Source: Candidatus Poribacteria bacterium | Lineage (GTDB): Bacteria; Poribacteria; WGA-4E; WGA-3G | Reading direction: 5' to 3' | Assembly (NCBI GenBank): GCA_026706025.1 | Contig: JAPOZO010000052.1 | Span: 48,337-112,336, forward strand | Length of the DNA: 64,000 nucleotides | In this document: piece by piece, positions 4,284-64,000 of the stretch | How the letters are laid out: each line of letters begins with the position of its first letter | Numbering within the stretch: position 1 is the stretch's first letter | Position numbers and translations under genes: made by a program | Notes under the pieces: model-generated | Database searches by the model: none | What the model was told of the DNA's origin: nothing | The model's input: only the letters and a program-made list of their open reading frames with translations

Positions 4284-4840
4284 GATTTTTCCTTAATCTG
4301 CGTAGGGAGCAACGCAACGCCGTATTTTTCTTGCAATGCGCGCAAGTCCGAAAAGTCGGTGTCTTGCAACATATATCCGAAATGTGAACGCACTTGGTAA
4401 TCCACTGATAGACATCGAACTTGCCGTCCACCAATAGAACCTATAGCATTCAGTTCCGGTTCAGTAATAATCCAATCAATTTCTCCTGGACCGTAGACTG
4501 CGCCCCCATTTTCCATCAGTTCAACCACATGAAAGTCAATTTTTCCGTGTAATTGATGCCCCATCACAAAGTTTCGGTCCGAACGGTCATCGGTATGGAT
4601 GTCAACAAAGCAGCGCGCGGAGAGTGCCTCGGTGAGTATTGCTGAATTTTTCCATGAGATGATAATATCCAAATCTTGGTGCTCCCGAGTGCATTCACCT
4701 AAGAGCGCATCAACACCCCAGCCACCGTCAATCCAGACTTTGATATCGAGCTCATTAAACAGATCAAGAAACCAGTGAACTCTGTCAGAGGTCATAGGGG
4801 AGACGTATTCGCTATCAGTGAGTGCGTTGCTCATTTTCAT
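4280..4840 (-). CDS. Aminoglycoside 2''-nucleotidyltransferase (ANT(2'')/AadB)-like nucleotidyltransferase
   Basis: VWIDGGWGVDALLGECTREHQDLDI aligns with the AadB motif LWIGGGWAIDARLGRVTRKHDDIDL. Similar length (186 aa). Confidence 0.6.
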   Translation of the reverse strand: MKMSNALTDSEYVSPMTSDRVHWFLDLFNELDIKVWIDGGWGVDALLGECTREHQDLDIIISWKNSAILTEALSARCFVDIHTDDRSDRNFVMGHQLHGKIDFHVVELMENGGAVYGPGEIDWIITEPELNAIGSIGGRQVRCLSVDYQVRSHFGYMLQDTDFSDLRALQEKYGVALLPTQIKEKS

Positions 4841-4851
4841 ATCGTCCTTAA

Positions 4852-5328
4852 CTAGGTCTTCAGTTGTTTCTCCAATTTAGACACACGTTCATGAAGTTCC
4901 AACACCAAATTTGCCAAGTTATCGAATGTCTTGGGGTAGAAAGCTTCTGGTGGTTCTTTATCAAACAGAAGTTCCATTTTCTCGCAAAAGCTTCGATCTT
5001 TAAGAATAGTTTTGGCCTTCTTTTCAACATTACTACGACTACGAAGGACAGGGTTCAACACCTTGGAAGCTATGAATTCAGCAGCTTTTCGACGATCCTC
5101 ATCTGCAAACTCTTCGTGAAGCCACCAACGAATGTGAGAAATTTTCTCTGGATTCAGTACAGTAGCGGAAGCCCCTGTTGTAACGCTGCTATCTTGGCGG
5201 ATTATGTGATTCGTGATACGATTTCGTAGGTCTTTACCATGCCCTACGTATACTAGTTTTTTGCTCTGATCGTAAATTGCATATATGCCAGGTTTTTTCG
5301 GTATTGAACTTGGAGAAAAGTCTATCAT
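4852..5328 (-). CDS. GIY-YIG nuclease domain protein
   Basis: KPGIYAIYD...LVYVGHGKDLRNRITNH contains the GIY..YVG..R..N signature. Confidence 0.6.
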   Translation of the reverse strand: MIDFSPSSIPKKPGIYAIYDQSKKLVYVGHGKDLRNRITNHIIRQDSSVTTGASATVLNPEKISHIRWWLHEEFADEDRRKAAEFIASKVLNPVLRSRSNVEKKAKTILKDRSFCEKMELLFDKEPPEAFYPKTFDNLANLVLELHERVSKLEKQLKT

Positions 5329-11497: not shown

Positions 11498-13126
11498 TTG
11501 AAAATGCACGAAGAAGGAAAACAACCGCAACATATGAGGGAAAGGGAATATAGGAAATTATTCGGTTTAGAGATTTACTTAACGCCTGTATTCGTGATTT
11601 CCAGTATCGCTATTGTTGTCTTTATTATCGGGTCTCTTATTTTCCAAGAAGGTGCGACCAAACTCTTTGGGGGTCTTCGGGTTTGGCTCACCACGAACCT
11701 TGATTGGCTGTTCATGATCTCTACCAACCTTGTTTTTCTTTTCTGTCTGGTCGTGGCGTTTTCTCCACTCGGAAAAGTGCGTCTCGGAGGCACAGACGCA
11801 AAACCCGAATACTCTTACCTAACTTGGCTTGCTATGATCTTTGCAGCAGGCGTGGGCATTGGGCTCCTCTTCTTTGGCGTTTCGGAGCCGGTTACGTATT
11901 TTCAGGGTGGTAGTTATTCGCCGCTGGGGACAGAAACGGTTTATGACCCAGGGACGGAATACAATGCCGGAAATGTCCCCGATGCGGGGGATCCCAAGGT
12001 TCAAGCGGCGGCTTCCTTGGGTATAGCGACGACGGTTTTCCACTGGGGACTGCAAGGGTGGGCGATCTACGGTGTTGTTGGACTTGCCCTCGCATTTTTC
12101 GCCTATAACCGGGGTTTACCGCTCCTGATCCGATCTGCTTTTTATCCGATATTCGGTGACCGGATATGGGGGTGGCCTGGACACATCATTGACACGTTCG
12201 CTATATTCGCTGGTATCTTTGGACTAGCGACCTCGCTCGGTTTAGGGGTCCAGCAGGTGACCTCCGGTCTTAACCATCTGTTTGGAATACCAGTGGCCCC
12301 TGTCACCATGGTTCTCCTAATTGTCGTGATCACCTCCATCGCGCTGATCTCAGTGATGACAGGTATTAATGTCGGTATCAAACGTCTCAGTCAATTTAAT
12401 ATAATTCTCGCCTTTTTATTACTGGCGGCTATTATCCTTCTCGGGCCAACGCTCTACATTCTTCGGACGCTTTTTACCGGACTTGGCACCTATGTTATGA
12501 AGATTATTCCGCTCAGCAACTGGATTGGGCGTGAAGATACTGGATTCTTCCACGATTGGACGACGTTCTACTGGGCATGGTGGATCGCGTGGGCACCGTT
12601 CATCGGCACCTTCATTGCTCGGATTTCAAAGGGACGCACAGTTCGTGAGTTTGTCATCTTCGTTCTTCTGCTACCGACGCTGTTATGCTTAATCTGGTTT
12701 AGTGCTTTTGGTGGCACTGCTATCCACCAGTTCCTCGCTGAAGGTTACACGGGTGTAACCGAAAATGTTGAGACATATACTTACGAACTTGCCCTATTCA
12801 AAATGTTTGAAGGACTTCCGTGGACAACGCTGCTCTCCTGCGTCGCTATGACGTTAACAATCATTTTTTTCGTTACGTCGTCGGACTCCGGTTCTCTGAT
12901 TATTGACATCATCGCGGCGGGTGGCAAGGTTGACGCGCCGGTACCGCAACGTGTGTTCTGGTGTACTGTGGAAGGTTTAGTCGCTATCGCACTCTTACTT
13001 GGCGGAGGGCTGAAAGCATTACAAGCCGCTTCGCTCGCGACGGGCTTTCCGTTCGCGATTGTGATTTTAGGTATGGGTATCTGTGTCTGGATCGGGCTTA
13101 GTAAAGAGGCCCGTCAATCTGAATAG
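11498..13126 (+). CDS. BCCT-family (betaine/carnitine/choline) transporter
   Basis: 12-TM protein with the BCCT signature region WGLQGWAIYGVVGLALAFFAYNRGLPLLIRSAFYPIFGDRIWGWPGHIID. Confidence 0.85.
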   Translation: MKMHEEGKQPQHMREREYRKLFGLEIYLTPVFVISSIAIVVFIIGSLIFQEGATKLFGGLRVWLTTNLDWLFMISTNLVFLFCLVVAFSPLGKVRLGGTDAKPEYSYLTWLAMIFAAGVGIGLLFFGVSEPVTYFQGGSYSPLGTETVYDPGTEYNAGNVPDAGDPKVQAAASLGIATTVFHWGLQGWAIYGVVGLALAFFAYNRGLPLLIRSAFYPIFGDRIWGWPGHIIDTFAIFAGIFGLATSLGLGVQQVTSGLNHLFGIPVAPVTMVLLIVVITSIALISVMTGINVGIKRLSQFNIILAFLLLAAIILLGPTLYILRTLFTGLGTYVMKIIPLSNWIGREDTGFFHDWTTFYWAWWIAWAPFIGTFIARISKGRTVREFVIFVLLLPTLLCLIWFSAFGGTAIHQFLAEGYTGVTENVETYTYELALFKMFEGLPWTTLLSCVAMTLTIIFFVTSSDSGSLIIDIIAAGGKVDAPVPQRVFWCTVEGLVAIALLLGGGLKALQAASLATGFPFAIVILGMGICVWIGLSKEARQSE

Positions 13127-13245
13127 CAATCGGCTGTCAGCAATCGGCAGTCGGAAGAATAGTTGTCGGTTCTCGGCGCGCGGTTAAGAGGTTTGCTTGC
13201 GTCAAGCATCTCTTAACCAACCGTCGAAAGCCGAAAGCTGAAAGC
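13127..13245. repeat. Family A-related element copy 3 (GTCAG / CTGAAAG heptad variants around the GGTTAAGAGG...CTCTTAACC core)
   Basis: CAATCGGCTGTCAGCAATCGGCAGTCGG ... GTTAAGAGGTTTGCTTGCGTCAAGCATCTCTTAAC ... CGAAAGCCGAAAGCTGAAAGCC. Abuts the accA start, which has no SD. Confidence 0.65.
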
Positions 13246-13253
13246 CAATAAAT

Positions 13254-14228
13254 ATGAACGCAACAGAACTTGAATTTGAAAAATCGCTCATTGAATTAGA
13301 AAACCATCTCACGCAATTGGAAGCCTTCGCGGAAGACCATCCTGAGTTAGACCTTACAGCAGGGATTGATGCCCTAAAGCAAAATGCAGATGTGCTTACA
13401 AAGCAGACCTTCCAAAAACTAAGCCGCTGGGATAAAGTGAGGTTGGCGCGCCATGCGCAACGTCCACAAGCCTCCTTCTACATCAACGCACTCCTTGATG
13501 AACCTACCGAGATTCACGGCGATAAGTTGTACGGCGACGACCGCGCACTCATAGGTGGTTTCGCATGGTTTGATGGACATCCCCTCGTCTATCTCGCGCA
13601 GCAGAAAGGCACAAACCTTGAAGAGCGTCAAGAGATGAATTTTGGATACACGCATCCAGAAGGTTATCGCAAAGCGAGGCGGTTGATGCAGTTGGCAAAT
13701 AAGTTCAACCGACCCATTATCTGTTTCGTTGATACACCGGGCGCGCATTTCGATCTCCGTTCCGAAGAATACGGACAAGCCATGGCAATCGCTGAAAATC
13801 TCGCTGAGATGATGCAGCTGCGCGTGCCAATCCTCGTCGTTATTATCGGTGAAGGCGGGAGCGGCGGGGCGTTAGCAATTGCTGTCGGAAACCGCGTATT
13901 GATGATGGAGTATGCCGTCTATTGCGTCGCACCCCCTGAAGCCTGTAGCGGTATCGTATGGAAAGACAAAGGCGAGCATGCCCCAGAGGCAACCGAAGGC
14001 TATAAACCTACTGCCCCCGATCTGCTCAAATTAGATGTCATCGACCAGGTCATCCGTGAACCGCTCGGCGGTGCACACAGGGATCCAGAAGCCGCAGCAC
14101 GCAGTGTCAAACGCGCCATACGCAAGCATTTCACAGAATTGATGCAGATGACCCCTCAGCAACTCGTCCAACAAAGATATGAACGGTATCGGCACATCGG
14201 GCTTTACGGCGAAAATTCTGCTGCATAG
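13254..14228 (+). CDS. accA: Acetyl-CoA carboxylase carboxyltransferase alpha subunit
   Basis: Collinear with E. coli AccA (RLARHxxRP, FxxxHGDRxxxDDxAxxGG, IGEGGSGGALA, PLGGAHR). Confidence 0.95.
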   Translation: MNATELEFEKSLIELENHLTQLEAFAEDHPELDLTAGIDALKQNADVLTKQTFQKLSRWDKVRLARHAQRPQASFYINALLDEPTEIHGDKLYGDDRALIGGFAWFDGHPLVYLAQQKGTNLEERQEMNFGYTHPEGYRKARRLMQLANKFNRPIICFVDTPGAHFDLRSEEYGQAMAIAENLAEMMQLRVPILVVIIGEGGSGGALAIAVGNRVLMMEYAVYCVAPPEACSGIVWKDKGEHAPEATEGYKPTAPDLLKLDVIDQVIREPLGGAHRDPEAAARSVKRAIRKHFTELMQMTPQQLVQQRYERYRHIGLYGENSAA

Positions 14229-22662: not shown

Positions 22663-23511
22663 GTGAATAGCAGCATTATAGGGATCGTTGTACGTGCGAT
22701 CCTTTTAACAACCTTTTGTCTCGTAACATCACTGGTGTGGGCAGCTGATACTGTTCTCTTTGAAGAAGATTTTGAAGATGTAACCCTCGAAGCAAGTATA
22801 ATGGAACAGGTCAAAGATAAAAAAGTTTGGTCAGGGACACCGCCTGAGGGTTGGGAAATTACAAACGAAAACCCCAAAGACCTCGGAATGCCTGAGTGGA
22901 GGACCTGGGCGATTGTTGACCTTGAGTGGTGGACAGCAACGGCGGAAGACCAGCGGCGTAGCGAGTTCACAGGGGTACACAATGACGGCAAAGGCATCGG
23001 TAACGGAGCCGTTTCTGATCCTGATGAATGGGATGATTGGGAAGGAAATGGCGACCCTGACGCGTTGAGTCGTTGGAATGGCCACTTAATTACGCCACCG
23101 ATTAAAATCAAGGGCGCAGCAGCAAAGTCGCTCGTTTTAACGTTGGATTCGAGTTGGCGACCTGAAGATACGCAAAACGGTGAAATAACAGTAAGTTTTG
23201 ACGGTGGTAAGGAAGAACGCATCTTATTCTTCAAGAGTGTCGGTATTGACGCAGGCGCGCATACACTTGTTACAATTCCTACGCTCGACCTGGATGAGGA
23301 AGATATAAAGGATGGAGAACAGATAAACGAAACGTTAGAAATCCCGATTGATAATCCGGCAAATGCCACTGAGATGATCATTAGTTTCGGTGTCATTGAT
23401 GCACAGAATGATTGGTGGTGGGCAATAGATAATATAAAACTCATCAGCACAGCATTTTCTGTTGAGCCAAAACATAAATTAGCAGTTAGGTGGGCAGAAC
23501 TAAAATCCTAA
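22663..23511 (+). CDS. Secreted protein of unknown function with conserved C-terminal KLAVRWAELKS tail
   Basis: Signal peptide, LFEEDFED motif after the cleavage site, Trp-rich. C-terminus ...VEPKHKLAVRWAELKS is shared with three other exoproteins in the window. Confidence 0.6.
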   Translation: MNSSIIGIVVRAILLTTFCLVTSLVWAADTVLFEEDFEDVTLEASIMEQVKDKKVWSGTPPEGWEITNENPKDLGMPEWRTWAIVDLEWWTATAEDQRRSEFTGVHNDGKGIGNGAVSDPDEWDDWEGNGDPDALSRWNGHLITPPIKIKGAAAKSLVLTLDSSWRPEDTQNGEITVSFDGGKEERILFFKSVGIDAGAHTLVTIPTLDLDEEDIKDGEQINETLEIPIDNPANATEMIISFGVIDAQNDWWWAIDNIKLISTAFSVEPKHKLAVRWAELKS

Positions 23512-24699: not shown

Positions 24700-24800
24700 T
24701 ATCAATCTTTCTTCGCTTTTTCTTGACAATACCGCCAAAAATGGGTTAGACTCTTAAGAAACACATTTGTCCCAAATTGTGTCCTTGGAGGTTATCTACC

Positions 24801-26453
24801 GTGAAAAAATCCTTTGGAATTACTGCGCGTTACGCAATCGTTCTGGTCGCTTTTGCTTTCTTGACATTGAATTGCACCAAAGTTACGGTTGCCCCGACAC
24901 GGCAAGTCTCATCAAGCACAAAACACCTCGACCGGCACATCAACACTGTGCTTAAAAGAAAAGATATTCAACCCTCAGAAATGTCAGCGGACACGGAGTT
25001 TTTGCGTCGTGTTCATCTCGACCTAACAGGTAAAATTCCCACCCCCGAAGAAGTCTTGAATTTTCTCAAGGACGGCTCTCCTAACAAACGCCAAAAAAAG
25101 ATTGATCAATTGTTAGGCAGCGAGCCTTATATTGATTATTGGACTCGGTTGTGGGTAAACTGGTTAATCGGCAGGCGCGGTGATGGAGATGATCAGCGCA
25201 TCGGATTAACAGCTTGGGTACAGGACGCTTTGACGAAAAATATGCCCTACAATCAGTTCGTTCAAGAGCTCATCGCTGCGGACGGCGAGTTAAAGGACAA
25301 CGGTGCCGGAAACTATATCATGCGTTATGAGCGATCCCCGGTTGTGCTAACTTCGCATAGTTCGCGACTCTTTTTAGGGCTACCTATGCAGTGTGCTGAA
25401 TGCCACGATCATAAGACAGAAGCTTGGAGCCAAGCGGATTACTACGGTATTGCCGCCTTTTTTACTGGTATTGAGAGTGAACAGAAAGGATACATCCAGA
25501 CAATGGATATGGCGGGTAATGAGAGGCGGATGGAAAATTTTCTGATTACCAACAAACCGAGGAAGTCTATGTGGGTGGAGAGAATGGACGCAGAAGTCTC
25601 ACCGCGCTTCCTTGGCGGCACAGAATACACAGGTTCACTCACTAAAAGGCGTGCGGCACTCGCACAATGGATGACCGATAAATCAAACCCCTATTTCAGC
25701 CGGGCAATCGTAAACCGCATCTGGAAACACTTCATGGGACGCGCCTTTGTTGAACCTATTGATGGATTCGGCGAAGAGAATCTACCCACCAACCCGGAAT
25801 TGTTGAATTGGCTCGCAGAGGACCTTGTCATTTACGATTACGACCTGCGACACTTGATGCGGACAATCCTTAATTCAGAAGCTTACCAGCGTACATCACA
25901 AACGAATAAGAGTAATAAAGATGACGAACTTTATTATTCACACGCGTACTTGAAACCGCTAAGTGCTGAGCAGTTTTTCTATTCGCTCCTGCAGGCGACT
26001 GGCTATGAAAGGCTTCAGGAGGTGAAAATGAAAGGCGCGAACAGGCAGGGAGGTGAGGACCGCAGGGGGATGCTACGCGAGCTTGAACGGAGGAAACGCG
26101 ATCATCTCGAAAGGTTCCTGTTCCTACTTGATAACGGCGAAATGGAAGAGATCGAAGCGTTCAATGGAACCGTGCCACAGGCACTTATGATGATCAATGG
26201 AAACATGGTGAATGATAGCGCGACTCACGGAGAACGCGGCAGCTTTGTCAATTATGTCATGGAAAAATGGCGCCAACCCGCCGATCGACTGGAATATATC
26301 TATCTTAACATTCTCTCTCGGTTACCAACTGCTAAAGAGAAAACCTTTTTTCAACGTTATATGGAACGCAGCCTCTATCGAAATAAAGACTTGGCTTACG
26401 AAGACCTTTATTGGGTCTTGTTAAATTCAGCTGAATTTTCGCTTAATCATTAG
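24801..26453 (+). CDS. DUF1549/DUF1553 (PSD1-like) domain protein
   Basis: FLRRVHLDLTGKIPTPEE (DUF1549) and QCAECHDHKTEAWSQADYYG (DUF1553) motifs. GTG start at 24801 with GGAGG SD. The ATG at 24777 given in the ORF track is probably too far upstream. Confidence 0.7.
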   Translation: MKKSFGITARYAIVLVAFAFLTLNCTKVTVAPTRQVSSSTKHLDRHINTVLKRKDIQPSEMSADTEFLRRVHLDLTGKIPTPEEVLNFLKDGSPNKRQKKIDQLLGSEPYIDYWTRLWVNWLIGRRGDGDDQRIGLTAWVQDALTKNMPYNQFVQELIAADGELKDNGAGNYIMRYERSPVVLTSHSSRLFLGLPMQCAECHDHKTEAWSQADYYGIAAFFTGIESEQKGYIQTMDMAGNERRMENFLITNKPRKSMWVERMDAEVSPRFLGGTEYTGSLTKRRAALAQWMTDKSNPYFSRAIVNRIWKHFMGRAFVEPIDGFGEENLPTNPELLNWLAEDLVIYDYDLRHLMRTILNSEAYQRTSQTNKSNKDDELYYSHAYLKPLSAEQFFYSLLQATGYERLQEVKMKGANRQGGEDRRGMLRELERRKRDHLERFLFLLDNGEMEEIEAFNGTVPQALMMINGNMVNDSATHGERGSFVNYVMEKWRQPADRLEYIYLNILSRLPTAKEKTFFQRYMERSLYRNKDLAYEDLYWVLLNSAEFSLNH

Positions 26454-26556: not shown

Positions 26557-27279
26557 ATGAACAGACGTAATCTGTTCATCGCTATCTGCGGTATTACCCT
26601 CGGCATCGCCGCGATTGCGATGTCGCAAACCTATTTTGAAGATAATTTTGATGACCCAAAGGAATCTGAGAAGAAATGGGTCGCTCTCTTTGGCGATTGG
26701 GAATTCAAGGCTGATGAATACCATCAACTCCAAAATTCACCCAACTGCATGAGTGTCGTCGCTGACGAATTCTGGGACGACGAGTGGAATGATTACACTT
26801 TTGAGGTGAGAGGGAGTAAAATCAGTGGTGCTGAAGGCTTCCTGATTATGTTCCGGTGCCAAGGCTTGATGCAGCCTCGTGGTCAAGCACTCGAAGATCA
26901 TCCGCCGCGCATGGAGAAACTCAAACCTTCATTAGAGTACTGGTGGAACCTCGGCGGCTGGGGAAACACACGCTCACAGGTTGAATCTTGGGGTGGCAAA
27001 GGCGGTGCCAATAGCAATCACACTATCGACGAAAAAGAGTGGTATAGCATCAAGATCGTCAATGAACCGGGTAGTTACACGCTCTTCCTCAACGACGAAG
27101 AAGTCGCGAAGGTGGACGATGACACCGAGAATGGTGTCGGGAGAGTCGGGCTTGCAACCTGGAGCACCGTTGCGAAGTATGACGATGTTTTGGTTTATGG
27201 ACCGGATGGTCCCTCGTTACCAGTTGACGCGAAAAGCAAACTTGCAACAACTTGGGCACATCTGAAATCCGCAAAATAG
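26557..27279 (+). CDS. DUF1080-like (LamG/jellyroll, 3-keto-disaccharide-hydrolase-like) secreted protein, paralog 1
   Basis: Signal peptide, YFEDNFDD motif, jellyroll strand pattern (WxxxxGxW ... DYTFEVRGSKISGAEGFLIMFR ... VGLATWSTxxKYDDVLVYG). C-terminal KLATTWAHLKSAK. Confidence 0.6.
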   Translation: MNRRNLFIAICGITLGIAAIAMSQTYFEDNFDDPKESEKKWVALFGDWEFKADEYHQLQNSPNCMSVVADEFWDDEWNDYTFEVRGSKISGAEGFLIMFRCQGLMQPRGQALEDHPPRMEKLKPSLEYWWNLGGWGNTRSQVESWGGKGGANSNHTIDEKEWYSIKIVNEPGSYTLFLNDEEVAKVDDDTENGVGRVGLATWSTVAKYDDVLVYGPDGPSLPVDAKSKLATTWAHLKSAK

Positions 27280-27296
27280 AGAAGGAGGATGCTATT

Positions 27297-28016
27297 ATGA
27301 ACAGACGCAACTTGTTCATTGCTATTTGTACAATTACGCTCAGTATCGCCGCGCTTGCGATGTCCCAAACCTATTTTGAGGATAATTTTGATGATCCAAA
27401 GGAATCTGAAAAGAAATGGGTCGCTCTCTTCGGAGAATGGGAATTCAAGGATGATGAATACCATCAACTTCAAAACGAACCCAACTCCATGAGCGTCGTC
27501 GCCGACGAATTTTGGGATGACAAATGGAATGATTACACTTTTGAAGTGAGAGGGAGTAAAATCAGTGGTGCCGAAGGCTTCCTGATTATGTTCCGGTGTC
27601 AAGGCTTGATGCAAGACCGCGGCCGAACGCTCGAAGACCATCCGCCACGCATGGCGAAACTCGAACCTTCACTGCAGTATTGGTGGAATCTTGGGGGTTG
27701 GGGCAACTCACGCTCACAGGTTGAATCTTGGGGTGGCAAAGGCGGTGCCAATAGCAATCACACCATCGAAGACGATGAATGGTATGATATCAAGATTATC
27801 AATACACCCGATAGTTACACGCTCATCATCAACGACGAAGAAGTCGCGAAAATGGACGATAACACCGAAGATGGTGTGGGTAGAATCGGGCTTGCAACGT
27901 GGAGCACCGTTGTGAAGTATGACGAGGTTTTGGTTTATGGACCGGATGGGCTCACGCCGGTTGATCCAAAAAGTAAGCTCGCAACGGCTTGGGCACATCT
28001 GAAATCCGTGAAGTAG
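27297..28016 (+). CDS. DUF1080-like secreted protein, paralog 2 (tandem duplicate)
   Basis: About 88% amino-acid identity to the upstream gene, with an identical RBS context (AAGGAGGATnnTATTATG). C-terminal KLATAWAHLKSVK. The ORF-track start at 27252 is an artefact of the upstream overlap. Confidence 0.6.
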   Translation: MNRRNLFIAICTITLSIAALAMSQTYFEDNFDDPKESEKKWVALFGEWEFKDDEYHQLQNEPNSMSVVADEFWDDKWNDYTFEVRGSKISGAEGFLIMFRCQGLMQDRGRTLEDHPPRMAKLEPSLQYWWNLGGWGNSRSQVESWGGKGGANSNHTIEDDEWYDIKIINTPDSYTLIINDEEVAKMDDNTEDGVGRIGLATWSTVVKYDEVLVYGPDGLTPVDPKSKLATAWAHLKSVK

Positions 28017-57275: not shown

Positions 57276-57620
57276 TTATGATTCTGAATCGGGCTGCAAC
57301 ACAGCAGAAAGAGTATCTGTAACCCATTGATCAAGATTCTTACCACTTGCTTCGGCCGCCATAGCGATGCCTATATGAACTTCGGGCGGAATGGACAAAG
57401 TCACGTTCCCAGAATAGGGTTTCTGCGGTGGCCTCCCTGATTCTTCGCACATTTCAAGGTAATCCTCCACTGCTTCTTCAAAAGCAGTTCGTAATTCGGC
57501 AACGGAATCGCCGTGAAACCCGACAATATCCCTAATTCCAGCGATTTCGCCAACAAGACAACTGTCCTCAGCACTATATCTAATTTCGGCTATATAGCCT
57601 TTGTATACCATTGTATTCAC
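57276..57620 (-). CDS. hicB: HicB-family antitoxin
   Basis: N-terminal HicB fold (YKGYIAEIRYSAEDSCLVGEIAGIRDIVGFHGDSVAELRTAFEEAVEDYLE) plus a C-terminal RHH-like segment. Overlaps the upstream gene by 4 nt. Confidence 0.7.
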   Translation of the reverse strand: MNTMVYKGYIAEIRYSAEDSCLVGEIAGIRDIVGFHGDSVAELRTAFEEAVEDYLEMCEESGRPPQKPYSGNVTLSIPPEVHIGIAMAAEASGKNLDQWVTDTLSAVLQPDSES

Positions 57621-57934
57621 GGTGTTATTCCTACCTCCTCAAGAAAACGTCGTGCGTTTTGCACTTGGTAAACTTTTGCCTCCTTCTGGCCATGCGGTCG
57701 ATGAAACGTAACGGCAACATTATTCAATTCAAACCGTACTCGCGATCCCCGTCCTTCAGTAAATTTGGCACCAAGGGCCACAAAAAGGGATTCAATACGT
57801 CGCCACCTCAATGTAGCCGGGACCGGCCTCCTGAAAATAGCGTTCAAAGTGTTCTGATGTCGTTTATTCATTTTTGTAAGAAATAATTTTCCATCTCCGT
57901 CCTCGATACATCCGGAGATCAGTTCTACCGGCAC
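57617..57934 (-). CDS. hicA: HicA-family mRNA-interferase toxin (with N-terminal extension)
   Basis: GAKFTEGRGSRVRF...VTFHRPHGQKEAK pattern, resembling HicA GSHxxF...HxPHxxK. Located immediately upstream of hicB. Confidence 0.5.
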   Translation of the reverse strand: MPVELISGCIEDGDGKLFLTKMNKRHQNTLNAIFRRPVPATLRWRRIESLFVALGAKFTEGRGSRVRFELNNVAVTFHRPHGQKEAKVYQVQNARRFLEEVGITP

Positions 57935-57936
57935 AA

Positions 57937-59073
57937 TTACCTATCCTCAATCGCTTCAACGTTCGCGCGGGGCAGCGTTGTTTGTTCGCCGTTTTCGAGT
58001 TCAACGCGCAGTACCCGTACCTGCGCCTCTGTCTCCAAATTCTGGAGTTCTACCGGCAGCTCCGTGACGCGTCCGAGTTTGCCGAAATACGGTTCCCGGA
58101 TGATCCGCACCGAGCTGCCAACTTCCAGAATCCCTTCAGTCGCACCATCGTCCGTATTGGCGGCTGCATCTGCAGTCTCTGGTGCGAACGGAATCACAAT
58201 CTCCGGGCGGACAACCCCAGCACGAATCTGCGTCGCACCGTTGATAGACGTTTTCATACCTTCCCGCGCTTTCAGGAGCGTAAACGTCTGCTCCGCCATA
58301 GCGATGCCTCCGAACCCTTCCGTAATAACGAGCGTAATCCCGATCTCCTCAGAACCGGTAATCGCTACACCGAGTTCATAGCCGAGAAGTTCTCGCAGGT
58401 CCGCGTCATCAATACCACCAGCAATAATGCCCTTTACACGCTGTTGAACCGCTTGCTGAATTGTCTCCGTTGTAACCAGCGAACCACCAACTAAAATGTT
58501 ATCTTTATGTTCTGGCAGTATCTGTTCAGCGGTCAATGCATCGCTCGGCGATTGAGAGACAACGACTAAGTTCCCCACCGTTTCACCACCGATCCCAAAG
58601 ATGCCTTGGATATAGGTGCCGTAAGTTTCGACTGTGACACCTTCGTTCGGAACGGTCTCCGTTACCGTGCCATCTGTATAGGCTTTGACCTCCACAGGGA
58701 TAGGTGGTTCGCGAAGGATAACCTGTCCGGTAACATCCGAAACCGCTTCAATCGTACCGCCAATCGGTGAACGCGCTTGCGATTTGAAAAGTCCGAAAAG
58801 CCCTTTGGTTGTAGCGATAATCTCGTCTTCTGAGACGGCTTCGCCTACAGATTTGAGCATGTATTCCGCAATCTCTTCCGGTGGAATACTGAGTAAGTTA
58901 GCAATATTCAATAGTTGAACGTTGCCCGGCAGGTCTGCCTTTGCGACGACATCCTCTGCCTTAACTGTTGTACCGGCTTGCACGAGGACCTCGCCTTCAA
59001 GCGGGAGCCGGCGTTCTTTTTGAATTGTCACCCCCTCGGTCACCTTAAGACCGGGGGTATATGCATGCGCCAT
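57937..59073 (-). CDS. Conserved hypothetical protein
   Basis: 378-aa ORF rich in Gly/Val/Thr. N-terminal beta-barrel-like region. No confident family assignment from sequence alone. Confidence 0.3.
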   Translation of the reverse strand: MAHAYTPGLKVTEGVTIQKERRLPLEGEVLVQAGTTVKAEDVVAKADLPGNVQLLNIANLLSIPPEEIAEYMLKSVGEAVSEDEIIATTKGLFGLFKSQARSPIGGTIEAVSDVTGQVILREPPIPVEVKAYTDGTVTETVPNEGVTVETYGTYIQGIFGIGGETVGNLVVVSQSPSDALTAEQILPEHKDNILVGGSLVTTETIQQAVQQRVKGIIAGGIDDADLRELLGYELGVAITGSEEIGITLVITEGFGGIAMAEQTFTLLKAREGMKTSINGATQIRAGVVRPEIVIPFAPETADAAANTDDGATEGILEVGSSVRIIREPYFGKLGRVTELPVELQNLETEAQVRVLRVELENGEQTTLPRANVEAIEDR

Positions 59074-59458: not shown

Positions 59459-60307
59459 ATGGCAACCCAAAGTGTAACTTACAAGACTGATAAAATCATG
59501 CCGACGTGGGAACAACTCGCTGAGATGGGGCGCGATCTCCAATTTCACCCAAGCATCACCGAGCAGCCGAAGGTGCTGACTCAGGAACAGGTGACTGATT
59601 TCAACAACGTCGGCTATATCAAAGGCATTCCAATTTTCGATGCAACCGAAATCGGTGAACACCGCCAATACTTTGACACGCTATTGGCGAACGTCCTTTC
59701 AGAAGGCGGAAGTAGTTATTCGATTATCTCTGCGCACATGAAGTATGGAAAGGTCTATGATCTGCTCACGCACCCAAAGATCGTTGCCTCTGTAAAAGAT
59801 TTGATTGGCGAAGATGTTATCGGTTGGGGCGCGCACTACTTCTGCAAAATGCCGCACGACTCGAAGACCGTCGGTTGGCATCAGGATGCCGGTTACTGGC
59901 CCCTCACACCCTCCAAAACCGTTACCGTCTGGCTCGCAATTGACGATGCATCGGTTGAAAACGGGGCGATGCGGTTCATCGCTGGTTCGCATCACCTCGG
60001 ACATTTAACCGCTCGGCACAGCGAACCCGACGAAAACAGTGTCCTGGGTCAAATCGTTGAAAACGCAGAAGAGCTCGGCGAATCGGTAGATGTTGAACTC
60101 AAAGCAGGCGAAATTTCTATCCACACCGACCTGCTGTTGCACGGCTCGAACGCCAATCCTTCACCGAAACGGCGGTGTGGTCTCACACTCCGCTACTGTA
60201 CCTCCGATGTCCGGGCATCTTTTCGCTGGGATCGGGAAGGTGTTGTGGTGAGCGGCAAAGATAGAAACCGGTATTGGAGCAACCCACCACGTCCTGCTGT
60301 CGATTAA
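59459..60307 (+). CDS. Phytanoyl-CoA dioxygenase (PhyH)-family 2OG/Fe(II) oxygenase
   Basis: HQDAGYW ... metal-binding HxD...H pattern and length are typical of PhyH-family proteins. Confidence 0.65.
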   Translation: MATQSVTYKTDKIMPTWEQLAEMGRDLQFHPSITEQPKVLTQEQVTDFNNVGYIKGIPIFDATEIGEHRQYFDTLLANVLSEGGSSYSIISAHMKYGKVYDLLTHPKIVASVKDLIGEDVIGWGAHYFCKMPHDSKTVGWHQDAGYWPLTPSKTVTVWLAIDDASVENGAMRFIAGSHHLGHLTARHSEPDENSVLGQIVENAEELGESVDVELKAGEISIHTDLLLHGSNANPSPKRRCGLTLRYCTSDVRASFRWDREGVVVSGKDRNRYWSNPPRPAVD

Positions 60308-60497: not shown

Positions 60498-61274
60498 TCA
60501 ATCCTGGATCTTGAGTGCGCCCCAAGTTACCGCCAGTTTTTCAGTAGGTTCAACCGCCAACGCCAGTGTATGCAATCTCCTTACGTCGGCATCACTTAAC
60601 GCCCCTTCAAAAATGGCAACTTCGTCAATGGCACCGGCGTACCAGATACCGCCCAAGTGCTGTGTGTAGGCGATTGTCGGCTTTTGCGCCGCACCGTAAG
60701 CGATGCTGATCGGGTCAGGTGCCTCGGTCGTTTTTTTCAACTCACCGTCCAGATAAATTCGGACGGACTTTTTGTTCTCAACAACCCCAACGACATGATG
60801 CCACTCGCCATCAGCTGGGAACGGCACATAAGCGGAGGGCCAATGCTTTGCCGCGTTCGCTGTGTCCGCTCGAATCCAGATGCCAACATTATTGTTATCA
60901 AGCAGTTGAATACCGTAGTTGTATTTGTCATAGATCGGATTTCGTGTGCCAAGGGTCGGCTTAATAATCGCCGCCATCGTCACAGAAGGGAAGAAGATGT
61001 CTTCACCCATTCGGACCAAATCAACAGCACCGTCAAAATCAAGGGCTTCACTGCGAAATCCATCGATTGGGTTGGGTTTGCCGGTAATGGTTCCGGTGTT
61101 CTTCCCGAAAACATCCTCAACATCTTTCCCTTGAACGGTGCCTTTGTCAAAGGTCCAAAGTGCCGCAAGCCCCATTTTGACCCTTGGATCCTCGGCTTCT
61201 GCAGGTTGAATCACTGTGATAGAAATTACGAAACCGACGAAAAGCAGAACAGAGACAGATAATTTCGTTTTCAT
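60498..61274 (-). CDS. LamG-like jellyroll (Laminin_G_3) secreted protein with conserved C-terminal KLAVTWGALK tail
   Basis: Signal peptide. Classic LamG_3 block GLAALWTFDKGTVQGKDVEDVFGKNTGTITG...ALDFDG. C-terminus ...VEPTEKLAVTWGALKIQD. Confidence 0.7.
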   Translation of the reverse strand: MKTKLSVSVLLFVGFVISITVIQPAEAEDPRVKMGLAALWTFDKGTVQGKDVEDVFGKNTGTITGKPNPIDGFRSEALDFDGAVDLVRMGEDIFFPSVTMAAIIKPTLGTRNPIYDKYNYGIQLLDNNNVGIWIRADTANAAKHWPSAYVPFPADGEWHHVVGVVENKKSVRIYLDGELKKTTEAPDPISIAYGAAQKPTIAYTQHLGGIWYAGAIDEVAIFEGALSDADVRRLHTLALAVEPTEKLAVTWGALKIQD

Positions 61275-61716: not shown

Positions 61717-63246
61717 TTATTTCACATCGCTCCGCAAAAACGCTAAGACAGCCGCCATAAACAGGAGCAGCGAGAGTAAAATTAACAACGTCAGATCCAA
61801 CAGTGCCGATTTGAAAGTGATGCCCAAGGTTAGCTTTTCTGAAAATTTGGGGATGCTACTAAAGGCGACAGGTTTTTGGGACAATCCTTCCTTGACAAGA
61901 TAGACGTGATAACTTTCTTTATCCCCATTGTCCTCAGATTTGATAAAATTAACGAACTGTTGTCTGTAGCGGCGCGCGTGTTGGATAAATCTTTTATGTC
62001 TGGCGAACCCTGTGCCAGAGAGAGATTCTACGGCATATTTGTAGATAGCCGCTGGGGAGAGTCGCGTAATTTGTTGCGTGAACGCAACCTGTGCGAACTG
62101 TTTATTTAGATGTTCATCCTCAATCCTGTTCTTTGCATCAGCGTGTTCGTTTAGATAGTCAGCCCACAGCTTTAACACCTCAATTTTAGGAGGTTGATCG
62201 GAAGGCGAACCTGTTCGGTAAAGTTTGTCACCCTCTTTATGCCGAGTATCAATTTCTTCTGCTGTTGCTTTCTTTGTTCGAGATATTTCGCTTTTGGAGG
62301 GAACCTGCTTGAAACCGCTTGCCAAAACTCCCATTGTGTTTGGAATAAGCACCACAAAGACGATCCAAATTAACAACAACGTCAGCAAGCTGCTTGACGA
62401 ATTAGAAAATTGACTTGAGATAAACAATCCAAGCCATAAAAATATTGAGAGGTAGAGAGCCGAAATACCAACGATAATTCCAACTCTTCCCCACTCGCCT
62501 CCATCAAGTGACACCAAGTCTGAGGCGTTGACAATCAGTAAATTTAACAATATTCCTATAATTAGCGGGACCATGATGCTAAGAAACGCACCGATAAACT
62601 TTGCCAGAAGCACGGTTGCACGGGGTACAGAATTAGCCATGAGCAAGCTTAACGTTCCTGTTTCACGCTCGCCAGAGACAGCGTCGTAAGTGAACAGAAT
62701 CGCCATAAAACTCATAACCAATCCGATAATGAACGTCCAATCTAATTCCGTGAAATTGGGTAGCGAATCGTTTTTGCGGGATATGTCCTGTGGATACTGA
62801 AGCCACCAGTTCGCTGACCAAGAGTAGTTGAAGTTAAAATCAGGCGTTGTCATACCGATACCATAGCCACCACTATAGGCACCTTCAACTCGCTTTGGTA
62901 GGTTCGCATCTTCACCGGTAGCGATGAAGGTTAATGGACTCACGGATTTGTATAGATCGCCTGGCCCCTTTACTGCAAGTTCACCTAAATTACGACTTTT
63001 CTTCTTCAGCGACTCAGCGGCTTTGTGCGTATCTTCGGAATATTCCGCGATCCTTCGCGGATATTGACTGCTCACAAATACCACGGCATTCAGCACCATC
63101 AGCACCATCACCAGAATCAGCGTGAGTGCAAACCGAAAACGCGTCAAATTATCAAGGATTTCCCGTTTTGCTATGTGCCAGATCATGTTGTCCTTTTTTC
63201 TGCTATCATTTGAAAGACGGGCAATAATGCACGTCGCAACCCCCAA
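61717..63246 (-). CDS. ABC-2-type transporter permease-like membrane protein (NosY/DUF3526-like)
   Basis: N-terminal MIWHIAKREILDNL and 6 TM helices, a long soluble insert and a final TM ending FLRSDVK. The true start is probably the internal MIWHIAK. Confidence 0.5.
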   Translation of the reverse strand: MGVATCIIARLSNDSRKKDNMIWHIAKREILDNLTRFRFALTLILVMVLMVLNAVVFVSSQYPRRIAEYSEDTHKAAESLKKKSRNLGELAVKGPGDLYKSVSPLTFIATGEDANLPKRVEGAYSGGYGIGMTTPDFNFNYSWSANWWLQYPQDISRKNDSLPNFTELDWTFIIGLVMSFMAILFTYDAVSGERETGTLSLLMANSVPRATVLLAKFIGAFLSIMVPLIIGILLNLLIVNASDLVSLDGGEWGRVGIIVGISALYLSIFLWLGLFISSQFSNSSSSLLTLLLIWIVFVVLIPNTMGVLASGFKQVPSKSEISRTKKATAEEIDTRHKEGDKLYRTGSPSDQPPKIEVLKLWADYLNEHADAKNRIEDEHLNKQFAQVAFTQQITRLSPAAIYKYAVESLSGTGFARHKRFIQHARRYRQQFVNFIKSEDNGDKESYHVYLVKEGLSQKPVAFSSIPKFSEKLTLGITFKSALLDLTLLILLSLLLFMAAVLAFLRSDVK

Positions 63247-63333: not shown

Positions 63334-64000
63334 CTATATAACGTCGTAGCGCAGGAATGAGATAAATGCTCCCATGAAGAATAGGACGTTTAATACCACG
63401 AGTATCATAATGTCCAATGTTGCGCGTTGCAGACTATTACCAATGCCTTCGCTCCGTTCCTTAAACCTTGGGATTTTGCTCAAATCAAAAGGTTCCTCGA
63501 ATTCAGTTGTAAACCATCTACGTGAAGAAAATATTTTTTCGTCTCTTAGATAGTCGACCCATTCACGACGATATTGTCGCGTCTGTTCCATAAATCGCCA
63601 GAAACTTCTGAGATCTGTTTCTGCCAGAATTGCAGCAGCATTATAATAAACCGCTGCCGGAGATATACGGGATATGTTTAGTGCTAATAGAGACTGTCGG
63701 TTTGGATTTTTGTCGAGATATGCTTTGCGTACTTGCCATATCCGATCGGCGTATTGTGCACGGAGGTTTTCCTTGAATTCGTAACACTCTTGGGCAAGAG
63801 GCAAGCCTTTTTCATTCCGAAAACCGCTCGCACTGACTGTCTCTCCACTGTCGTAATCATTGACACCTGATCGGGAACCCATACCACTGGGATTGGCGAG
63901 ATTAAGAGAATTCTCAACGCCTCGTTTCTGTAAATAATCTTTGACTTCGGCTTCATATTGCTTCCACAAGTCGCCTGCCTGCCCTTTATACGACTCCTCT
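63334..64000 (-). CDS. Paralogous ABC-2-type permease-like protein, C-terminal part (5' end beyond window)
   Basis: The frame is open to the window edge. Aligns with the C-terminal 220 aa of the downstream paralog, including the final TM ending FLRYDVI. Confidence 0.5.
   Translation of the reverse strand, partial: EESYKGQAGDLWKQYEAEVKDYLQKRGVENSLNLANPSGMGSRSGVNDYDSGETVSASGFRNEKGLPLAQECYEFKENLRAQYADRIWQVRKAYLDKNPNRQSLLALNISRISPAAVYYNAAAILAETDLRSFWRFMEQTRQYRREWVDYLRDEKIFSSRRWFTTEFEEPFDLSKIPRFKERSEGIGNSLQRATLDIMILVVLNVLFFMGAFISFLRYDVI

Follow-up and report, generated by a model that had tools for sequence, protein, structure and literature searches.

Why exported proteins of different folds should end in the same short peptide is the question raised by a window of 64,000 nucleotides on a Candidatus Poribacteria metagenome scaffold. 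A sequence-only reading of this DNA had claimed that four ORFs share a C-terminal tail. An ORF check, a regular-expression search and an HMM all bear this out: the ORFs lie at the coordinates first given for them and end in the tail, and the same four are found among independent gene calls on the source scaffold.

Four ORFs with one C-terminal tail

ORF 1, 22663-23511, + strand: 282 aa, predicted exported, signal-peptide-like at about residues 1-28 (gene call L001 6107-6955); C-terminus ...SVEPKHKLAVRWAELKS, then stop
Tail 1, 23461-23508, + strand: VEPKHKLAVRWAELKS, stop codon at 23509-23511 (HMM, 23.2 bits)
ORF 2, 26557-27279, + strand: 240 aa, signal peptide at about residues 1-23, DUF1080/CBM66-like beta-sandwich at 25-214, linker, tail (Pfam, AF2, Foldseek); C-terminus ...PVDAKSKLATTWAHLKSAK, then stop
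Tail 2, 27223-27276, + strand: VDAKSKLATTWAHLKSAK (HMM, 30.4 bits; AF2 residues 222-237 at pLDDT <50)
ORF 3, 27297-28016, + strand: 239 aa, architecture as in ORF 2 (gene call L001 10741-11460); C-terminus ...PVDPKSKLATAWAHLKSVK, then stop
Tail 3, 27960-28013, + strand: VDPKSKLATAWAHLKSVK (HMM, 30.1 bits)
ORF 4, 60498-61274, - strand: 258 aa, signal peptide at about 61194-61274, Laminin_G_3, linker, tail (Pfam, 61 bits); C-terminus ...AVEPTEKLAVTWGALKIQD, then stop
Tail 4, 60501-60554, - strand: VEPTEKLAVTWGALKIQD (HMM, 26.8 bits)

The pattern V-[DE]-[PA]-x-x-K-L-A-[TV]-x-W-[AG]-x-L-K stands 1-3 residues ahead of the stop in exactly four ORFs of the window. Searched in all six frames, K-[LIVM]-[AST]-x(1,2)-W-[AGS]-x-[LIVM]-K gives four matches, all 1-3 residues from a stop. 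An HMM trained on 60 tails, the four window tails included, scores the latter at 23-30 bits, with a runner-up of 6.4 bits among 1193 six-frame segments; neither the regular expression nor the HMM finds further tail-like sequence in the six frames of the window. The tail is conserved as protein and not as DNA. The aligned tail DNA differs synonymously (AAATTAGCA / AAACTTGCA / AAGCTCGCA / AAACTGGCG), conservation is confined to the coding part, and the alignment reveals none 3' of the four stops. Because nothing is conserved past the stop codons, a DNA repeat or mobile cassette is ruled out.

The carriers themselves are diverse. The ORF 1 protein matches no Pfam family and has no PDB relative in a sequence search; the tail profile likewise finds no meaningful match in the PDB. 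ORF 3 is a tandem paralogue of ORF 2 (85% identical), and the earlier assignment of both to a DUF1080-like type holds, with PF06439 (3keto-disac_hyd/DUF1080) at 31.3 bits in ORF 2 and 35.3 bits in ORF 3 against a Pfam gathering cutoff of 26.8. Foldseek agrees: the AF2 model of ORF 2, a ConA-like beta-sandwich with a pLDDT of 88, retrieves CBM66 4b1m (E 1.5e-8), and also 1oq1 and the DUF1080 structure 3hbk. ORF 4 was equally well called as a LamG_3 protein, since PF13385 (Laminin_G_3) scores 61 bits against a gathering cutoff of 27.6.

The tail was proposed to be a module in its own right, and three observations support this. Only the 18 tail residues align when the ORF 1 protein is compared with the DUF1080-like family by hhalign, the AF2 model of ORF 2 places the tail outside the fold as a disordered segment (pLDDT <50), and at least 32 unrelated sequence clusters carry it. 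Within the DUF1080-like family, the tail is kept in all complete members. An N-terminal (F/Y)FE(D/E)(D/N)F(D/E)D motif had been noted as shared along with the tail. Three of the four window proteins do have it, with LFEEDFED in protein 1, but it is a feature of the fold and no part of a tag: the FE(D/E)-type motif makes up the opening beta-strand (25-29 in the AF2 model) of the DUF1080-like fold, and it is unrelated to the tail because it is present in just 6 of 157 tail proteins.

Distribution and consensus of the tail

A wider search for ORFs ending in the tail, which the sequence-only reading had called for, matched many unrelated carriers in Poribacteria. An HMM of the tail alone, run over 1.84e9 representatives with matches listed at E<=1e-3, gives 22 matches, most of them at the C-terminus and at least 20 within 3 residues of the end; one of the 22 (P0121) is an ankyrin-repeat false positive. 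Among the matched carriers are LamG-like and Kelch-like proteins and others of no recognised type, and every named member of the clusters behind the matches comes from Poribacteria. A DNA pattern for the tail, scanned over 185,579 species genomes, matched at least 120 blocks, and 114 of the blocks listed are titled Poribacteria (about 82 assemblies). A single Rhodobacteraceae block proved to be a chance match to the DNA pattern, with no ORF there. Among the genomes scanned, the tail thus appears almost confined to Poribacteria and, judged by these matches, phylum-wide there.

The matched DNA (0.93 Mb) holds 184 HMM hits, 180 of them within 8 residues of a stop, and yields 157 complete tail ORFs of 96-364 aa in 32 BLAST clusters. 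The N-terminus is hydrophobic, like that of a signal peptide, in 146 of these 157. A lipobox-like match ([LVI][ASTVI][GAS]C) occurs in only 1 of 161 tail proteins, so the carriers do not look like lipoproteins. A Pfam census of 150 carriers assigns 89 to Laminin_G_3, 8 to DUF1080, 6 to PD40, 5 to CBM9, 4 to CBM_4_9, 2 to F5/8C and 1 to HmuY; Kelch propellers and LTD also occur among the carriers. At least 32 unrelated clusters, with several different folds, thus have the tail at their very end, and the possibility that it occurs only in the window paralogues did not hold. Very roughly, a genome may encode a hundred or more small Sec-exported binding modules with the tail alone. A LamG gene bearing the tail is also carried by a phage.

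Across these proteins the consensus is [AP]-V-[DE]-P-x-G-K-L-[AT]-T-T-W-[GA]-x-[IL]-K, followed by 0-8 residues that are mostly basic or polar, with Arg and Lys enriched after the last Lys. Almost no variation is seen at Lys 0 and Lys 9 (K or R only) or at the Trp (W in all), and an acidic residue at position -4 is conserved. Of 160 tail proteins, 103 end in R, K, Q or N and 18 in an aromatic residue. At least one residue follows the last Lys in all 248 tails of two sets, which might be taken as evidence for a leaving group. This regularity is broken in a third set, where 2 of 22 tail-only ORFs stop exactly at the last Lys, and an obligatory leaving group is therefore disfavoured.

The tail motif ahead of T9SS type A CTDs

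The same motif is found inside larger proteins, exactly six residues upstream of poribacterial T9SS type A (Por_Secre_tail/FlgD_ig) domains, in WD40, NHL and ASPIC proteins. In one of them (L113:5055-6926), FG-GAP and ASPIC domains are followed by the tail (518-534) and then by PF18962 (541-620), the CTD scoring 28 bits with PF18962 (cutoff 27) and 45.9 bits with FlgD_ig. Among the best 120 CTD hits, some 35 show the string V-E-P-x-G-K-x3-T-[WL]-G-x-[IV]-K-x6-N|YPNPF, on different passengers; other poribacterial CTD proteins have a different segment upstream of the CTD and no such motif. A metagenome scan seeded solely with W-G-x-[LIVMF]-K-x6-NYPNPF gave 98 sites, 77 of them unique, and the upstream positions that were not part of the seed are nevertheless conserved in the unique sites (V 71/77, P 59/77, K 73/77, T 64/77). 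The contigs that yielded the 98 sites also hold 22 tail-only ORFs. Three positions are well conserved in the bare tail (L 116/160, T 140/160, T 150/160) and variable in the pre-CTD version, a comparison that is confounded, since the DNA pattern by which the bare tails were chosen already demanded Thr at both places.

The AF2 model of a tail+CTD fragment combines a confident CTD beta-sandwich, which resembles FlgD Ig-like domains and also the CTD-bearing PorU and PorZ, with a disordered tail. A role for the tail as an extra, donated strand of the CTD sandwich is not supported by this model. Downstream of the stops of tail-only genes there is no CTD signal or relic in any frame, which rules out readthrough or frameshifting into a downstream CTD. 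Because the motif is fixed six residues upstream of the CTDs, the tail is best read as the linear motif that precedes the CTD in a T9SS-like sorting module, here employed by itself.

Comparison with known signals

The sequence-only reading held that the tail matches none of the PEP-CTERM, LPXTG, GlyGly-CTERM and T9SS CTD signals. No model in Pfam or NCBIfam matches it, and the comparison with TIGRFAM sorting-signal models, which had been suggested as a check, likewise came back empty: NCBIfam returns nothing at E<=10 on isolated tails and nothing at E<=1 on the 150 carriers. Nor was a description of the motif found in the literature on Poribacteria and their sorting or type IX secretion. As far as Pfam, NCBIfam and the literature searched are concerned, the tail has not been described before, and it is not a CTD; what must be amended is its isolation from known systems, as the same motif precedes poribacterial T9SS type A CTDs.

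The tail has several features in common with the type A CTD itself (TIGR04183/PF18962; FlgD_ig-like). Each is a lineage-wide C-terminal signal, a putative one in the case of the tail, found on a wide range of unrelated Sec-exported proteins; ahead of poribacterial CTDs the motif lies within the disordered linker, the part that PorU cleaves in P. gingivalis; and PorV/PorQ-like barrel genes lie near tail genes. The CTD, however, is a folded beta-sandwich of 70-90 residues, whereas the tail, with its 16-20 residues, is disordered and has no sequence similarity to it. The window proteins are without a CTD: TIGR04183/PF18962 matches neither the four proteins nor the isolated tails, and only 1-3 residues follow the motif. 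In the literature read on the Bacteroidota T9SS, no extended pre-CTD motif was found described. Cargo with a type B CTD is anchored by adjacent PorP/SprF-like barrels (PMC9143113). Tail genes show a likeness to this arrangement where they lie beside genes for PorV/PorP-family barrels, which could hold cargo at the surface, but the type B CTD, unlike the tail, is folded, and the barrel adjacency of tail genes is sporadic and its specificity putative.

Short linear motifs near the C-terminus of exported proteins are also used by LPXTG/sortase systems and in the PorU step. There, part of the motif stays on the mature protein and a leaving group is removed; for the tail, this role might fall to a short peptide or to an entire CTD. 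Unlike LPXTG, the tail is followed by neither a hydrophobic helix nor a charged anchor, no sortase was identified, and two tails end at the last Lys. PEP-CTERM/exosortase, GlyGly-CTERM/rhombosortase and IPTL-CTERM are likewise lineage-restricted, multicopy signals at the C-terminal end of signal-peptide proteins, and IPTL-CTERM has an L-x-x-W-G core, as does the tail. These signals are tripartite (motif, transmembrane helix, Arg/Lys cluster), whereas the tail has no transmembrane segment and 0-8 polar or basic residues after the motif; it does not combine motif, helix, basic cluster and model match. Dockerins resemble the tail as portable C-terminal modules that bring many unrelated extracellular modules to one partner, yet they are domains of 60-70 residues with a duplicated Ca-binding F-hand (PF00404), to which the tail has no homology; Pfam gives no match on the tails. 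The tail is not an outer-membrane beta-signal, in which a C-terminal F, Y or W closes a beta-barrel; the carriers are soluble beta-sandwiches.

Gene neighbours and candidate machinery

PorV/PorQ-family barrels adjoin tail genes on contigs L192 (4209-5168; 98.5 bits) and L220 (100-1017; 116.8 bits), against a cutoff of 90. In named Poribacteria blocks, divergent PorV/PorQ relatives score 33-82 bits, below the family cutoff of 90; in L119, such a relative (4308-5288) lies 220 bp from a LamG tail-only gene. Barrel adjacency is found in 3 of 120 blocks and 4 of 95 contigs, a frequency that is not statistically secure without copy number. FGE-sulfatase lipoproteins near tail genes were considered as PorK/GldK and rejected at 124-158 bits against a cutoff of 350. 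Kamke et al. (2014) found no core T9SS genes (SprA, PorU, PorK-N) in poribacterial single-cell genomes, which were incomplete (PMC3909097). Cohesin and dockerin domains are present in the genomes studied here.

The commonest neighbours of tail genes are PhyH dioxygenases (26 ORFs in 21 of 120 blocks). Since over 1.9% of all genes in Poribacteria belong to PhyH anyway (PMC3909097), and the PhyH and tail genes of the window are convergently oriented, the family was treated as background and not as a tail-linked modifying enzyme.

Possible functions of the tail

The tail has about an even chance of being a sorting-module motif that is read by a T9SS-like apparatus, most likely as a recognition or attachment signal. 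Shared by exported proteins and placed before T9SS CTDs, it probably directs placement or tethering; its recognition, its reader and the outcome we infer as follows. An N-terminal signal peptide would take the protein across the inner membrane. The tail would then be read in trans by a conserved T9SS-like sorting or attachment component, for which an outer-membrane barrel of the PorV/PorQ type and a sortase/peptidase resembling PorU are candidates, and the mature C-terminus so marked would be retained at, or attached to, the cell envelope. Tail+CTD proteins would end in the motif once the CTD is removed; tail-only proteins end in it from the outset. In P. gingivalis, PorU cuts the CTD off in the linker and the new C-terminus is joined to A-LPS (PMC4560394, PMC8545088). 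The PorU of P. gingivalis needs no extended upstream motif, which counts against a T9SS-like reader, as does the lack of the motif in part of the poribacterial CTD proteins. A single reader for both classes would also face a topological problem, because tail-only proteins are without the CTD, the outer-membrane translocation signal in Bacteroidota.

A stronger form of this proposal, in which the 16-residue tail would be a sufficient, CTD-independent signal of the sortase type or for docking to PorV, and would direct surface export or tethering through T9SS-related machinery outside Bacteroidota, is tentative and somewhat doubtful. The tether might be covalent or non-covalent, the cargo would be small lectin-like proteins, and tail+CTD proteins would bare the same motif after removal of the CTD.

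Instead of directing T9SS-type sorting, the tail might be a docking or oligomerisation peptide that assembles a cohesin-dockerin-like complex at the surface or in the periplasm through non-covalent contacts such as beta-strand augmentation. The partner would be a scaffold or other tail proteins, so that many lectin-like modules are brought together. Most carriers are non-catalytic binding modules, the motif is rich in beta-branched residues beside a flexible linker, the putative strand is conserved on both faces, and these genomes encode cohesin and dockerin domains; docking also needs no leaving group, as befits the two tails that end exactly at the last Lys. Even so this reading is unlikely, as it leaves unexplained why, on unrelated passengers, the motif always stands six residues from a T9SS-type CTD, no candidate receptor was found, and AF2 gives the peptide no structure.

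Direct binding to the outer membrane or to anionic LPS, with the tail as a cationic, Trp-containing amphipathic anchor that replaces covalent attachment to A-LPS, is decidedly improbable. The near-invariant Lys 0, Lys 9 and Trp and the enrichment of Arg and Lys after the last Lys suit such an anchor, as do a low-confidence AF2 helix with an L-W-L face and the correct location once a CTD has been removed. But the peptide has just some 10 residues, with much Thr and Gly among them, which implies a weak hydrophobic moment, and it keeps an acidic residue at position -4. The conserved V-[DE]-P-x-G and Thr-Thr suggest specific recognition by a protein over lipid binding.

A tail without a sorting role, whether a vestige of CTD loss from former T9SS-type cargo or a C-terminal tag for degradation or quality control, is very hard to sustain. 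Truncation is a plausible origin because the tail equals the pre-CTD segment, and periplasmic proteases of the Prc/Ctp type are generally known to read C-terminal peptides. A vestige would not be expected to persist phylum-wide in over 30 families with a fixed spacing to the stop codon, to leave no CTD relic 3' of tail-only genes in any frame, or to occur on a phage-borne LamG gene; the bare tail is also more conserved than its pre-CTD version, a contrast confounded by the DNA pattern noted above. As for a degron, the extreme C-terminal residues, which are those that PDZ proteases read, vary here. Shared ancestry alone, with the carriers as divergent paralogues and the tail as the last conserved piece of one family or DNA cassette, is scarcely credible and contradicted by the evidence, for although ORFs 2 and 3 are tandem paralogues and LamG and DUF1080 are both ConA-like folds, profile comparison aligns the tail alone, AF2 puts it outside the fold, DNA conservation stops with the coding part, and the carriers include PD40/Kelch propellers, HmuY, LTD and CBM9.

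Significance for Poribacteria

If a T9SS-like apparatus does read the tail, it would represent a new class of C-terminal sorting signal, short and without a transmembrane helix, and could become an HMM for annotation. Kamke et al. (2014; PMC3909097) left open what becomes of T9SS-type CTD proteins in a phylum where no T9SS has been recognised, and a conserved motif at the junction of passenger and CTD, used without the CTD too, offers a handle on this question. It makes two predictions that metaproteomics can test: a specific mature C-terminus, and a specific reader in the form of either a PorV/PorQ-like barrel or an enzyme akin to PorU. Poribacteria are uncultivated and dominant symbionts of sponges. 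Contact with host glycans presumably runs through their surface and secreted proteins, and a phylum-wide tag on lectin- and CBM-like modules would define that surface proteome from sequence alone.

A shared C-terminal tail in four window proteins

Four open reading frames (ORFs) in the window encode proteins that end in a common peptide of about 16 residues, V-[DE]-[PA]-x-x-K-L-A-[TV]-x-W-[AG]-x-L-K, numbered here from the Lys of K-L-A, K(0). All four have signal-peptide-like N-termini, as judged by inspection.

22663-23511, plus strand: ORF 1, without a family in Pfam or NCBIfam
26557-27279, plus strand: ORF 2, PF06439/DUF1080 family
27297-28016, plus strand: ORF 3, tandem paralogue of ORF 2 (85% identity), same family
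60498-61274, minus strand: ORF 4, Laminin_G_3 protein

Independent gene calls on the source scaffold, ENA ERZ23496776 ROBB21-1 scaffold_84 of 179 kb with the window at 48321-112320, agree with these frames. Searching the six frames by regex locates the core K-L-A-[TV]-x-W-[AG]-x-L-K exactly four times in the window, in each case with 1-3 residues left to the stop. Scored with a profile from 60 tails that include these four, the window tails reach 23-30 bits, against 6.4 bits for the highest of the remaining 1193 six-frame segments. Coordinates, gene calls, regex scan and profile scores confirm the sequence-only observation of four proteins with a common tail. Near the four stops the DNA is alignable in its coding part only, with synonymous differences, and alignment of the four loci reveals no DNA similarity downstream, so that what the four share is a peptide under selection. 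A DNA repeat as the shared feature is ruled out, since the similarity ends at the coding part.

Judged from structural models and profile alignments, the tail is separate from its carrier domains. AlphaFold2, supplied with 54 homologues, predicts a confident beta-sandwich for ORF 2 (residues 25-214, mean pLDDT 88), while residues 222-237 fall below 50. Foldseek neighbours of this domain are CBM66, a galectin-like Bacillus protein, calreticulin lectin domains and DUF1080 structures. When the profile of ORF 1 is compared with that of the DUF1080-like family, the last 18 residues align and nothing else does. Lying outside the fold and forming the sole aligned part of ORF 1, the tail behaves as the independent, undescribed tag first proposed. 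An N-terminal motif, 'YFEDNFDD', had also been noted in three of the four proteins; it is the first beta-strand of the sandwich (strand 25-29) and is present in just 6 of the 157 tail proteins. It thus belongs to the fold, has no bearing on the tail and is no second tag.

ORFs 2 and 3 form a tandem duplication with a 17-bp spacer. Directly upstream lies a PSCyt2/PSD1 (DUF1549/DUF1553) gene (24777-26453), whose product is of a type typical of Planctomycetes-like genomes.

Distribution and cargo

The tail is conserved across the candidate phylum. ORF 3 has about 120 homologues; all named ones are Candidatus Poribacteria, and every full-length one bears the tail. In this family K(0), W(+5) and K(+9) are essentially invariant (K/R exchanges only), V(-5) is nearly so, and 1-8 residues follow the last Lys. 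A tail-only HMM searched against 1.84 billion representative proteins returns 22 matches at E<=1e-3, most at the C-terminus, in LamG-like, Kelch-like and untyped proteins; a match in one ankyrin-repeat protein is false. The cluster members with a name come from Poribacteria, and their annotation is limited to 'LamG domain-containing' or 'hypothetical'.

A DNA scan with back-translated V-x4-K-x-[AT]-T-T-W-[GA]-x-[LIVMF]-K, covering 185,579 species at one genome each, yields at least 120 blocks. Among those listed, the title names Poribacteria for 114 (about 82 assemblies); four belong to 'uncultured bacterium' MAGs and carry real tails, and one, also with real tails (two of them), is from a sponge-derived 'Pseudomonadota' bin that is probably misbinned. 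A Rhodobacteraceae block has no ORF behind its match. Conservation extends outside the search pattern, to -7 (L/T/F), -6 (A/P/S), -4 (E/D), -3 (P/A), -1 (G/D), +1 (L) and +8 (L/I/V).

The cargo is diverse. In 0.93 Mb of fetched DNA, 184 HMM sites score at least 10 bits and none falls between about 2 and 10 bits; 180 of the 184 lie within 8 residues of a stop. The complete tail ORFs (n=157) span 96-364 aa (median 264), 146 have a hydrophobic N-terminal segment, and a lipobox occurs in just 1 of 161 tail proteins. With the tail removed, the ORFs fall into 32 BLAST clusters. Pfam assigns 89 of 150 carriers to Laminin_G_3, 8 to DUF1080, 6 to PD40/DPPIV_N propellers, 5 to CBM9, 4 to CBM_4_9 and 2 to F5/8 type C, alongside HmuY, DUF3108-like and other families. 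Kelch-like proteins (620-660 aa) and one LTD protein (1052 aa) also end in the tail. DNA not chosen for them contains 23 tail-only genes (tail at the extreme C-terminus, no sorting domain) in 681 kb, and the 74 kb examined of the source scaffold contain four. Very roughly, this amounts to one every 30 kb. A genome would then have on the order of a hundred or more, an extrapolation and not a census.

Viral contigs carry the tail as well. L007 (IMGVR_UViG_3300021791_000527) is a phage fragment by its PHROGs (DNA polymerase B at 1032 bits, UvsX, DnaB-like helicase, clamp loader). Its gene at 12770-13696 specifies a 308-aa Laminin_G_3 protein with a hydrophobic N-terminus and the C-terminal end ...KVEPKLKLTTTWGEVKK before the stop. 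A second viral contig encodes a homologue (L009:6454-6558), and in a third the tail is followed by 28 extra residues (L008:3527-4393). This suggests that phages of Poribacteria borrow the host tag.

Relation to known C-terminal signals

Neither Pfam nor NCBIfam, including the TIGRFAM sorting-signal models, matches the tail in full proteins, in the 150 carriers or in isolated tails (E<=10), in line with the initial impression that no documented sorting signal fits. The PEP-CTERM, LPXTG and GlyGly-CTERM class is excluded because no transmembrane helix follows the motif, and the OMP beta-signal because the last residue is rarely aromatic. The defining features of a dockerin are absent, and unlike a type IX secretion system (T9SS) CTD (the type-A C-terminal sorting domain, Por_Secre_tail/FlgD_ig), the tail has no folded domain and no HMM match. 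It would work like C-terminal sorting signals in general, yet lies outside every described family. Full-text literature searches did not find the motif described.

The supposition that the tail is unrelated to T9SS signals fails, as the motif directly precedes many poribacterial CTDs. Two of four non-C-terminal HMM matches are orthologous 624-627-aa proteins from named Poribacteria (blocks L113 and L091), in which FG-GAP repeats and UnbV_ASPIC are followed by the tail (518-534), six residues and an N-YPNPFNPETW... Por_Secre_tail/FlgD_ig domain. This domain scores 28 bits against PF18962 (cutoff 27) and 45.9 bits against FlgD_ig. A search with tail plus CTD returns 2495 proteins; of the 120 best, some 35 show V-E-P-x-G-K-x3-T-[W/L]-G-x-[IV]-K-x3-[LV]-[FYL]-Q-N immediately before YPNPF. 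ASPIC, WD40 and NHL proteins are among the passengers of these, and the named ones are poribacterial 'T9SS type A sorting domain-containing protein' entries.

A metagenome scan seeded with W-G-x-[LIVMF]-K-x6-N-Y-P-N-P-F alone finds 98 sites (77 unique) on 95 contigs, all with the NP[ED]TWIP CTD subtype. Unseeded upstream positions are those of the bare tail: V(-5) in 71, P(-3) in 59, K(0) in 73 and T(+4) in 64 of the 77. The same contigs bear 22 tail-only ORFs. In an AlphaFold2 model of a tail-CTD fragment, the CTD sandwich reaches pLDDT 90-96 and is similar to FlgD Ig-like domains and to PorU and PorZ of P. gingivalis, which bear CTDs; the tail is disordered (26-46, below 50). Downstream of the tail-only genes, no frame holds a CTD remnant, and there is no CTD in the window. 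The shared motif before CTDs, together with the lack of a CTD after tail-only genes, indicates a passenger-CTD linker motif that is also used alone.

Most poribacterial CTD proteins without the tail have another conserved pre-CTD segment, ...(Q/R)RGIxxLEQLLxxLxPKETxLLxN|YPNPF (database proteins P0184-P0282). A 790-aa protein on two contigs (L228:17385-19757, L229:7725-10097) combines Laminin_G_3, Cohesin, Dockerin_1 and a FlgD_ig/T9SS-type CTD and has a Dockerin_1-bearing neighbour, so cohesin-dockerin modules coexist with the CTD system in those genomes.

Candidate machinery and gene neighbours

The one related statement that the literature searches turned up is that of Kamke et al., who reported TIGR04183-like domains on poribacterial proteins and found no T9SS genes (Kamke et al., 2014; PMC3909097). 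On four metagenome contigs, PorV/PorQ-family outer-membrane barrels lie a few kb from genes for tail-CTD proteins, and two exceed the NCBIfam cutoff (98.5 and 116.8 bits versus 90). Divergent relatives below that cutoff (33-82 bits) occur in 3 of 120 named poribacterial blocks; in L119 one lies 220 bp from a LamG tail-only gene, divergently oriented. This adjacency is a lead, not proof.

PorV/PorQ-family barrels beside tail-only or tail-CTD genes
L119:4308-5288, minus strand: PorV/PorQ-like barrel adjoining L119:5509-6306 (plus strand)
L043:646-1800: PorV/PorQ-family barrel
L103:2-853: PorV/PorQ-family barrel
L192:4209-5168: PorV/PorQ-family barrel
L220:100-1017: PorV/PorQ-family barrel

FGE-sulfatase lipoproteins near tail genes were rejected by score as PorK/GldK, and the window holds no sorting-enzyme-like gene. 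The commonest neighbours are PhyH (Fe/2OG dioxygenase) genes, in 21 of 120 poribacterial blocks and, in the window, convergent with ORF 4 (59459-60307, plus strand); the expansion of PhyH known from this phylum (>1.9% of genes) probably accounts for this, rather than a functional link. Tail genes repeatedly have large ECF-sigma/transmembrane/BNR-propeller fusions nearby (20 ORFs in 15 blocks, e.g. L002:5116-6375 and L074:5132-7999). In the window, the LamG-tail gene adjoins two ABC2_membrane/DUF3526 permease genes and an ECF sigma-factor gene (61717-63246 and 63334-63969, minus strand), and a HicA/HicB toxin-antitoxin pair (about 57276-57934, minus strand) adjoins an unannotated 378-aa ORF (57937-59073).

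Possible role of the tail

The CTD of P. gingivalis drives translocation across the outer membrane. PorU cleaves the linker immediately upstream of it, at X/(G,S,A)(V,L,I), and joins the new C-terminus to anionic LPS; PorV and PorQ belong to the shuttle and attachment complex (PMC4560394, PMC8545088). A disordered, conserved motif at exactly the passenger-CTD junction that is also the natural C-terminus of many CTD-less exported proteins fits best with a recognition element that some component of a T9SS-equivalent apparatus, possibly a sortase-like enzyme or a docking barrel, would read in trans, and that would be left at, or define, the mature C-terminus. We give an even chance to the tail being a sorting or attachment tag tied to a T9SS-type pathway. 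Most often Ser or Ala follows the last Lys, and at least one residue does so in 248 of 248 tails from two sets, points for a processing site; a third set, in which 2 of 22 tails stop right at the Lys, is a point against it.

The rival readings make the tail a peptide for docking or oligomerisation and nothing more, a cationic anchor that binds LPS or membrane through its Trp, or a vestige or degron. Common ancestry as the sole origin is, alone among the rivals, effectively excluded.

The tail can be described as a phylum-specific C-terminal tag that is short, lacks a transmembrane helix and is physically tied to a T9SS-type CTD subtype. Lacking a CTD, the tail-only proteins should stay periplasmic, unless the tail suffices for export or its reader acts before translocation.
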